From assembly GCF_003991155.1 (NCBI RefSeq), contig NZ_CP031293.1: a DNA stretch of 64,000 nt; one strand, written 5' to 3'. This DNA is from Escherichia coli (GTDB taxonomy: Bacteria > Pseudomonadota > Gammaproteobacteria > Enterobacterales > Enterobacteriaceae). Every line of letters begins with the position of its first letter. The first letter of the stretch is position 1. A program made the position numbers. Below, piece after piece: positions 45,001-48,000 of the stretch.

Positions 45001-48000
45001 CGATGCGTTATCTGTTCATCTGGAACGCGGCGCGGTTAACCTTGCGGATTTCGCCTGGGCACGGCAGCTCAACGGCGAAGGGATGCGCGAACTGCTGCAA
45101 CAGCCTGGCTATATTCAGGCTGGTTACAGCTTGTTGAATGCGCCAGTTGCCGCCCGCTGGCAGCGGAAAATTATCGACACATTAGCGACTTATCATGAGC
45201 AACATCGCGATGAGCCTGGTCCTGGGCGCGAACGTCTGCGACGTATGGCGTTGCCAATGGAAGATGAAGCGCTGGTACTGTTGCTGATTGAAAAGATGCG
45301 CGAAAGCGGCGACATCCTCAGTCATCACGGTTGGCTGCATCTGCCGGATCACAAAGTGGGCTTCAGTGCAGAGCAGCAGGCCATCTGGCAAAAAGCAGAG
45401 CCGCTGTTTGGTGACGAACCGTGGTGGGTGCGTGATCTGGCAAAAGAGACGGGTACCGACGAGCAGGCAATGCGCCTGACGCTACGCCAGGCGGCGCAGC
45501 AGGGGATAATTACCGCGATCGTTAAAGATCGTTATTACCGTAACGATCGGATTGTCGAGTTTGCTAATATGATCCGCGATCTCGATCAGGAGTGTGGCTC
45601 GACCTGCGCGGCGGATTTCCGCGATCGCTTAGGCGTAGGCCGAAAGCTGGCAATTCAGATTCTGGAATATTTTGACCGCATTGGCTTTACGCGTCGTCGT
45701 GGAAATGATCATTTATTACGCGACGCATTATTATTTCCGGAAAAATAAGGAAATGATTAATTCATAATAAATATGAATTAATACAAAATTTCTTATTAAT
45801 GTTAAGAAGGCACGTTATTTGATGAATGTAACGTGCTTTTTATTAAAAATATTTTAATAAACGGTAATATTGATCATATTTTCAAATGAAAATTCTCAGT
45901 AAGCTGCCCGCCCTTTTTTACACTTTCAGGAGTGTGTTATGGCAGCTTCAACCTTTTTTATTCCTTCCGTGAATGTTATTGGTGCTGATTCATTGAATGA
46001 TGCAATGAATATGATGGCAGATTATGGATTTACCCGTACCTTAATTGTCACCGACAATATGTTAACGAAATTGGGTATGGCGGGTGATGTGCAAAAAGCA
46101 CTGGAAGAACGCAATATTTTTAGCGTTATTTATGATGGCACCCAACCTAACCCAACCACGGAAAACGTCGCCGCAGGTTTGAAATTACTTAAAGAAAATA
46201 ATTGCGATAGCGTGATCTCCTTAGGCGGTGGTTCTCCGCACGACTGCGCAAAAGGTATTGCGCTGGTGGCAGCCAACGGCGGCGATATTCGCGATTACGA
46301 AGGCGTTGACCGCTCTGCAAAACCGCAGCTGCCGATGATCGCCATCAATACCACGGCGGGTACGGCCTCTGAAATGACCCGTTTCTGCATCATCACTGAC
46401 GAAGCGCGTCATATCAAAATGGCGATTGTTGATAAACATGTAACTCCGTTGCTTTCTGTCAATGACTCCTCTCTGATGATCGGTATGCCGAAGTCACTGA
46501 CCGCCGCAACGGGTATGGATGCCTTAACGCACGCTATCGAAGCGTATGTTTCTATTGCCGCCACGCCGATCACTGACGCTTGCGCACTGAAAGCGGTGAC
46601 CATGATTGCCGAAAATCTGCCGTTAGCCGTTGAAGATGGCAGTAATGCGAAAGCGCGTGAAGCAATGGCTTATGCCCAGTTCCTCGCCGGTATGGCGTTC
46701 AATAATGCTTCTCTGGGTTATGTTCATGCGATGGCGCACCAGCTGGGCGGTTTCTACAACCTGCCACACGGTGTATGTAATGCTGTTCTGCTGCCACACG
46801 TTCAGGTATTCAATAGCAAAGTCGCTGCAGCACGTCTGCGTGACTGTGCCGCTGCAATGGGCGTGAACGTGACTGGTAAAAACGACGCGGAAGGTGCTGA
46901 AGCCTGCATTAACGCCATCCGTGAACTGGCGAAGAAAGTGGATATCCCGGCAGGCCTGCGTGACCTGAACGTGAAAGAAGAAGATTTCGCGGTACTGGCG
47001 ACTAATGCCCTGAAAGATGCCTGTGGCTTTACTAACCCGATCCAGGCAACTCACGAAGAAATTGTGGCGATTTATCGCGCCGCAATGTAATCATCATTCC
47101 CGCAACGGCTGGCGAGTTGTCAGCCGCTTTTTCAACTATCTCAAAACTTGCTTTTTTTGAGATAGTTTCTCTTTCCTGCTATATACTATCTCAATATTGC
47201 GCTTTTTTGAGATAAGCACATGGCTATCAAATCACCTCCCGGACTTATTCCTTTATCACACTTATCGGGTGAGGAACTCCTGGCCCACCTGCGCTTTAAC
47301 CGGGTTACCGATGAAAAAGGACGTTATCTGCCTTTTGATGAGTTGCAGTACCGCATCAAAAAAGGAGAAAACGTCGATGTGGCGTGGACGCTTACCCGTC
47401 TGGCGCGCAACGCGGCGATCCAACGAATTAATTATTGCAATGAAGCGGGTGAACAGGCCGGATTCAACATTACCCCGGTGCTTGCAGAAGCGTGCGAGCT
47501 TGTCGACAAACGTGCTACCGCGCTGGCGCTGAAAGATCAGACTGAACGGTTACGCGGGGCCGGAGCCGAGTTAAGCCAGTTACGCCTGGAAGAGCCGATC
47601 ACCAGCTCCCAGCTGGAAGGTGCGAATACTACAACGCTGGTGGCGAGAAAAATGCTGGAAACAGGGCGGTCGCCACGCACTGAAGACGAGCATATGATTG
47701 CGGGAAATGCCCGGCTGATGGCGGAAATTCCGCACTTACTCGCAGAACCGCTGACACCTGCGCTTATTCGCCAGTTACATGCCATTGGTATGGGTGGAAT
47801 CAATGACGCGAAATATCGTCCGGGAGAATTTCGTGAAACAGATGATGTTGTGATCGCCGACTATGATGGCAATATAGTGCATCAACCGCCCGCTGCGGCA
47901 TTGTTACCGGAACGGCTGGAAAAAGTTTGCCAGTGGTTAAACAGCCATGAAGGGTATATTCATCCGTTGGTCCGTGCCTGCATTCTGCATTTTATGCTGG

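Follow-up and report, generated by a model that had tools for sequence, protein, structure and literature searches.

In a 64-kb stretch of the Escherichia coli chromosome (contig NZ_CP031293.1; the whole of it is called the window here, and positions are counted from its first letter) a gene for a Fic protein, fic, follows yiaY and is preceded by two palindromes that form the subject of this analysis. The gap between yiaY and fic measures 129 bp and holds both the yiaY terminator and the two palindromes (Table 1). Judged by sequence conservation, fic truly starts at the ATG at 47220, since the N-terminus M-x-I-K-x-P-P is kept even in homologues that are no more than about 40% identical.

Table 1. 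Genes, palindromes and predicted control elements around fic, with their positions in the window
Feature	Position	Strand	Basis or remarks
selB	43904-45748	+	E. coli chromosome window
yiaY	45939-47090	+	
yiaY intrinsic terminator	47106-47126, with T run to 47132	+	GC-rich 9-bp stem followed by T run; terminator scan
Distal palindrome P1, putative operator O_D	47134-47167	.	AACTATCTCAAAA-N8-TTTTGAGATAGTT; core TATCTCAA-N12-TTGAGATA
Predicted -35 hexamer TTGAGA	47157-47162	+	5/6 match to TTGACA; inside right half-site of O_D
Predicted extended -10 TGcTATATA	47177-47185	+	Hexamer 17 nt after TTGAGA; read by hand and from conservation
Proximal palindrome P2, putative operator O_P	47185-47214	.	ACTATCTCAA-N12-TTGAGATA; half-sites 47185-47194 and 47207-47214
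Predicted transcription start	47192-47194	+	About 7 nt after the -10, last bases of left arm of O_P
Weak Shine-Dalgarno-like GAGA	47209-47212	+	Inside right arm of O_P, 7 nt upstream of ATG
fic, 431-aa class II Fic AMPylase	47220-48515	+	Pfam Fic E=5.6e-20; PADLOC SoFic E=1.2e-43; invariant alignment columns
Predicted C-terminal winged helix	48300-48512	+	AlphaFold2 model, weak Pfam helix-turn-helix matches, Foldseek
Predicted recognition helix DNTARADLRTIVK	48408-48446 (residues 397-409)	+	
aldB	3' of fic	+	

The distal palindrome, P1, is built of two 13-nt arms of perfect complementarity (47134-47146 and 47155-47167) that stand 8 nt apart, and the proximal one, P2, of perfect 8-nt arms (47187-47194 and 47207-47214) that stand 12 nt apart. 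Together they constitute a 30-nt direct repeat of 80% identity with a start-to-start period of 50 nt, and in a common register both read TATCTCAA-N12-TTGAGATA, the core half-sites of P1 then falling at 47135-47144 and 47157-47166. A search of the window for TATCTCAA and TTGAGATA separated by 8 to 16 nt returned 2 matches, compared to 0 in 100 dinucleotide shuffles. Motif matches elsewhere in the window, at 40671 and 50577, were discarded, as they lie within long open reading frames (ORFs) and fit the background rate. An earlier note on this DNA had reported two near-identical inverted repeats ahead of the Fic start codon, the second of which was said to end 5 nt before the ATG and to overlap the ribosome-binding region. 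The repeats are indeed real and had been placed correctly to within 2 nt; P2 (end at 47214) is separated from the ATG by the five nucleotides AGCAC, and the GAGA at 47209-47212 sits in its right arm.

The protein carries the Fic motif HPFRDGNGRTSR at residues 264-275, in agreement with the active-site pattern HxFx(D/E)GNGRxxR, and in the same chain, N-terminal to it, the inhibitory motif TSSQLEG at residues 128-134 (in the context ITSSQLEGA). Residues H264, P265, F266, D268, G269, N270, G271, R272 and R275 of the former and S129, S130, Q131, L132, E133 and G134 of the latter are invariant in the alignment of 25 homologues. Class II Fic proteins are defined by a Fic motif together with an N-terminal inhibitory motif (definition quoted in PMC9755527), and since both HPFRDGNGRTSR and TSSQLEG are present, the protein belongs to this class. 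According to an AlphaFold2 model of the monomer (pLDDT 87), the C-terminus is a winged helix of three helices (residues 367-378, 386-393 and 397-409) and two strands (413-417 and 423-427), which would span residues 367-427. Foldseek matched the full length of the model, over about 350-368 columns, to the PDB entries 8cil (CbFic2), 3zcn and 3eqx (SoFic), 4rgl and 7xux (CccR). The PADLOC model for SoFic covers residues 96-428, and the NCBIfam SoFic equivalog is scored at 40.3 bits against a cut-off of 550. The remaining extension of about 95 residues at the N-terminus (residues 1-95, encoded at 47220-47504) lies outside the PADLOC model; it is modelled with confidence as a helix/beta-hairpin fold and carries GRYLPFDE as a conserved motif.

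A clear association between the palindromic motif and fic emerged from the comparison of homologues. We fetched 80 homologue-encoding loci from species-representative genomes and scanned the 69 with usable upstream DNA for the pattern TCTCAA-N12-TTGAGA, allowing at most two mismatches. In these loci 52 matches were centred 0-120 nt upstream of the fic start versus 10 in the remaining 439,830 bp, and dinucleotide-shuffled upstream regions gave 0.74 matches on average and 4 at the maximum. At least one site was present in 31 loci and two copies, always 49-52 bp apart, in 20; the proximal sites were centred 11-21 nt before the start codon (28-29 distinct loci). The hosts include Leptolyngbya (cyanobacteria), Marinomonas, Ningiella, Halopseudomonas, Photorhabdus and, in general, several orders of the Gammaproteobacteria, and their proteins are 39-67% identical to E. 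coli Fic, those of Leptolyngbya and of several gammaproteobacterial orders only 39-45%. The flanks TA..TA, although absent from the search pattern, are conserved as well and extend the half-site to the 8 bp of TATCTCAA, and the spacer between the half-sites is fixed in length and free in sequence. From genome to genome, nothing accompanies the motif except the gene for the Fic protein with its winged helix-turn-helix (wHTH). Thus, since no yiaY or aldB homologue was found at the motif-bearing homologue loci and the neighbours vary between loci, the motif travels with fic. On a shorter evolutionary scale, E. coli was compared with E. albertii and with an Escherichia sp. whose protein is 76% identical, and substitutions turned up only in the spacers, the inter-operator DNA, one position of the -10 and the leader, all four half-sites being free of substitutions.

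The motif is also related to the recognition helix. The loci that have the motif share a helix start of the form S-[YD]-N-T-A, and clades with other recognition helices have other palindromes, or none that were detected. In two Verrucomicrobia metagenome-assembled genomes (L078 and L081) the duplicated elements GAACTATTAATT-N7-AATTAATAGTTC and TTTGCTACTAATTT-N5-AAATTAGTAGCAAA lie 4-100 nt upstream of the fic homologue, and the recognition helix differs (SY.TARSDL); this suggests that operator and recognition helix may have co-diverged there with the two-site layout kept. The Pseudomonas homologues, which were missed by the scan, have the same layout in degenerate form. Matches with an N10 spacer were rejected as a separate class, as they were mostly the same sites re-matched via the A/T runs inside them; genuine N10 variants are limited to a few loci of the Campylobacterota, a clade whose recognition helix is again different. 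The locus of Alcanivorax quisquiliarum holds three palindromes, one more than E. coli, in an exact 50-bp phase; their distances to the start of fic are 116, 66 and 16 nt.

The palindromes appear to be interleaved with promoter elements. More specifically, the six nucleotides directly upstream of the proximal 8-mer follow the pattern T-A-t-n-n-T in the distinct loci (T in 22/28, A in 22/28 and the final T in 16/28). The right arm of the distal palindrome reads TTGAGACA (GAGACA, not GAGATA) in 12 of the 25 distinct distal sites, a variant that breaks the palindrome and improves the GACA core of the putative -35, as expected of DNA that has two jobs. From the position of these elements we infer the transcription start that is listed in Table 1, and therefore O_D would be centred at about -42 and O_P at about +8. 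With respect to this conservation-derived promoter, the half-sites overlap the predicted -35 and stretch from just after the -10 to +25. The fifth position of the predicted -10 (47185) is a T in the window (TATATA) versus a C (TATACA) in most other E. coli, among the sequences compared in O157, U13A, AHB29, GmF052 and E. albertii; this natural promoter variant might alter basal expression.

Considering these data, it is likely that the palindromes are tandem operators at which a dimer of the Fic-wHTH protein represses its own promoter. Autoregulation by the helix-turn-helix (HTH) of Fic had been suggested in the earlier note, and it is supported, indirectly, by the conservation of the motif at fixed position and spacing, by its overlap with the promoter, by its co-occurrence with fic and by a precedent: CccR (YPK_0951, PDB 7xux) of Yersinia pseudotuberculosis, a toxin of the class II Fic-HTH type, acts as a dimeric autorepressor (PMC9755527). 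Both the binding of Fic at the sites and the repression that such binding would cause are what we infer from this combination. A Fic homodimer would bind each 28-bp TATCTCAA-N12-TTGAGATA unit through its C-terminal winged helix. The centres of the half-sites are 20 bp apart, corresponding to about 68 Å, and because this amounts to about two helical turns, the half-sites share one face of the DNA. Binding at O_D would then cover the -35 region and binding at O_P the segment from the transcription start through the ribosome-binding region, so that two dimers, 50 bp apart, would cover the entire footprint of the RNA polymerase, and the resulting negative feedback would keep the transcription of a potentially toxic AMPylase at a low level. 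A dimer that bridges the inner half-sites (TTGAGATAGT-N18-ACTATCTCAA) in a CccR-like manner was considered as well and is less probable, as the loci that have only the proximal site favour the N12 unit. By analogy to CbFic2, one could imagine a role beyond repression, in which the operators pin Fic dimers in a defined catalytic state and their displacement (for example upon phage infection or DNA damage) would derepress the gene and activate the toxin at the same time, making the operator pair the sensor of a SoFic-like defence module; we hold this extension to be unlikely.

Several observations weigh against autorepression by Fic. The Pfam HTH matches at residues 361-414 are weak and stay under the curated cut-offs, and in sequence only the Fic core matches solved structures or resembles CccR and SoFic. 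A strict scan for the sigma-70 consensus returned no promoter in the region, and the -10 of E. coli (TATATA or TATACA) is without the conserved final T. In addition, the sites were chosen by the TCTCAA/TTGAGA core, which makes the conservation of the core positions partly circular; the enrichment, the conservation of the flanks, the spacing and the position are free of that circularity. The operator of CccR is a single AGATAATCAT-N26-ATGATAATCT near the -35/-10 boxes (PMC9755527) and its geometry (10-bp arms, N26, one unit) differs from the one found here (8-10-bp arms, N12, two units 50 bp apart), and because of this difference the analogy is functional, not structural. Finally, the association is strong when one starts from the gene and weak when one starts from the motif. 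When metagenomes were scanned for the 16-base pattern without mismatches, at least 120 loci came up, and among the matches listed, to which all of the following counts refer, a Fic homologue was located directly downstream in 17 of the 120. Eleven of these were E. coli-like with two exact copies 50 bp apart, one had two copies 49 bp apart and a more divergent homologue, and five had a single copy and encoded proteins of 38-65% identity. The other 103 matches, 44 of them within ORFs and 59 intergenic without a common neighbour, are consistent with the background of a very large database, and the bare 16-base pattern is nonspecific in metagenomes.

The gene and its putative operators are found in 1,572-1,574 of the 5,426 complete E. 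coli genomes (about 29%), including UTI89, ST131 and O157:H7, and fic is absent from the other 71% or so. K-12 (BW2952, L001 1560-1800) shows a clean deletion of 1,368 bp that corresponds to positions 47143-48510 of the window; what is retained is the left half-site of the distal palindrome, AACTATCTC, and the last 5 nt of fic (TGTAA), followed by the upstream region of aldB. At the sequence level this points to a probable loss of fic in K-12-like lineages rather than an insertion elsewhere. The yiaY terminator is kept in this fic-less strain, and it is outside the Fic control region. At the other end of the gene, a pair of small ORFs extends over the 3' end of fic and the gap between fic and aldB, one of 50 aa on the plus strand (48376-48528) and one of 58 aa on the minus strand (48429-48605).

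Palindromes of this kind could also act in other ways. The earlier note had offered an RNA structure that blocks translation initiation as the second option, in which case a hairpin of P2 in the fic mRNA would hide the Shine-Dalgarno region and lower translation, with P1 as a second hairpin in the 5' untranslated region. The idea draws on the fact that in many taxa the palindrome ends just 0-9 nt from the start codon, and with both arms transcribed P2 would fold at -9 kcal/mol with the GAGA inside the stem. However, the conserved -10 lies directly upstream of the left arm of P2, so that the predicted transcript is without that arm, and no significant structure is predicted for the leader that begins at 47192 (z = +1.3). 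The stability of P2 is also ordinary (z = -1.8; 11 of 200 shuffles fold equally well), and although P1 folds at -14.1 kcal/mol (z = -6.3), such a strong fold is the plain consequence of a 13-bp palindrome. Moreover, it is the arm sequence itself that is kept across phyla, beyond what pairing would require, and the loop is fixed at 12 nt. An A.C mismatch, which allows no RNA pairing, is present at the second arm position in 9 of the 25 distinct distal sites, and the second identical copy upstream of the promoter is better explained by a protein that recognises duplex DNA than by pairing in RNA. A bias towards G.U pairs was dropped as a test for RNA, as it is uninformative at the proximal site and the dominant mismatch at the distal site is A.C. 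An Rfam scan of positions 46900-47500 gave no match at E<=1. On these grounds translational control by an RNA hairpin, the second option of the earlier note, is very unlikely, with a small probability left to it in read-through transcripts from yiaY.

Control of read-through from yiaY, with P1 as a back-up terminator or insulator and P2 as a translational mask, would reduce the link with fic to one of insulation. The terminator scan flags 47134-47167, directly after the yiaY terminator, for its 13 pairs and T-rich tail, and in view of this terminator-like appearance P1 could provide some extra insulation. Nevertheless, only 3 of the 13 pairs in the stem are G-C, the tail TCTCTTTCCT has no clean U run and a competent yiaY terminator is already at hand at 47106-47126. 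In most taxa the distal copy, with its 8-bp arms and 12-nt loop, would make a poor terminator, and the motif is found again ahead of fic homologues whose upstream genes are wholly different, all of which makes a role in read-through very unlikely. The most improbable of the alternatives is that another host factor binds the sites, or that they are inert remnants (terminal repeats or recombination sites) of an element that carried fic. That fic is present in some strains of E. coli and absent from others, and that the K-12 deletion breaks off inside P1, might be taken to indicate the latter, palindromes being common targets of recombination. Yet both copies lie on one side of fic, at a fixed distance to its start and interleaved with promoter elements, and do not flank the gene, and the half-site and 5 nt of fic that are left in K-12 mark a simple deletion. 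It is unlikely as well that cyanobacteria and so many gammaproteobacterial orders would share such a host factor, and there is no conserved neighbouring gene.

Repression by Fic at its own tandem operators thus remains the preferred explanation. Literature searches brought up neither a study of the E. coli gene or the palindromes in front of it nor any description of how the gene is regulated. The principle of autorepression is already known from CccR, whereas the operator consensus, the two-unit layout interleaved with the promoter and the conservation across phyla were not found described. The findings suggest that autoregulation through the wHTH is general to a large class of Fic proteins and not a peculiarity of CccR. 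The motif consensus provides a testable model for the silencing of a potentially toxic AMPylase and, at the same time, a defined DNA ligand with which the structure of Fic-wHTH dimers can be studied; if Fic regulates other genes, as CccR does, the motif can also help to find these further targets.

The autorepression of CccR has been established by lacZ fusions, electrophoretic mobility shift assays, DNase I footprinting, isothermal titration calorimetry and mutation of the palindrome (PMC9755527). Like E. coli Fic, CccR is a class II protein with a C-terminal HTH and has widely spaced inverted half-sites over its own -35/-10 region, which for E. coli is a predicted promoter. Its fold matches the model of E. 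coli Fic over 361 columns, and the distance of 70.2 Å between its DNA-binding helices (PMC9755527) fits the 20-bp (about 68 Å) spacing of the half-sites in E. coli. In sequence the two proteins resemble each other only in the Fic core (E=1.5e-11, residues 122-289), and the extension of about 95 residues at the N-terminus sets the E. coli protein apart. Another difference is found in the genomic context, as no type VI secretion system was seen around the E. coli gene, which is located between yiaY and aldB.

SoFic (SO_4266) of Shewanella oneidensis has the same domain order of inhibitory helix, Fic domain and wHTH, but with about 372 aa it is without the N-terminal extension. According to a preprint, SoFic binds the 100 bp directly ahead of its own start codon as a dimer but not as a monomer (bioRxiv 10.64898/2026.07.09.737422), and the text covered defines no SoFic binding motif. 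The 300 bp upstream of SoFic, as given in Table S2 of the preprint, contain repeated ATGTCGAT/ATCGACAT half-sites that are unlike the E. coli motif. One such site, ATGTCGAT-TGA-ATCGACAT, is located inside F1, the fragment best bound by SoFic, and may be the operator at which SoFic acts on itself. For EcSofic of E. coli H397, a member of the SoFic family of anti-phage defence, a downstream gene for the 47-aa antitoxin AS1 is reported; no counterpart was established next to the present fic, at whose 3' end the ORFs of 50 and 58 aa lie.

The class II Fic protein CbFic2 of Coxiella burnetii (8cil) also has a wHTH and couples DNA binding to dimerisation, and on DNA it switches between AMPylase and deAMPylase activity towards histone H3; these assays used generic double-stranded DNA of defined length and GC content (PMC10628234). 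No operator or autoregulation is described for CbFic2, which is the best structural match to E. coli Fic (Foldseek E=2.1e-12, 368 columns).

The proposed layout of the fic operators can, in addition, be compared to that of the classical autorepressors. Classical autorepressors with two operators, for example those of the type II toxin-antitoxin systems, overlap the -35 and the +1, and lac O1 is centred at +11. As would be the case for Fic, dimers on palindromes occlude the polymerase footprint in these systems and negative feedback is exerted on a toxic product. Unlike in the classical systems, however, the toxin-like enzyme and the DNA-binding domain reside here in one polypeptide, and the half-sites are two helical turns apart instead of one.

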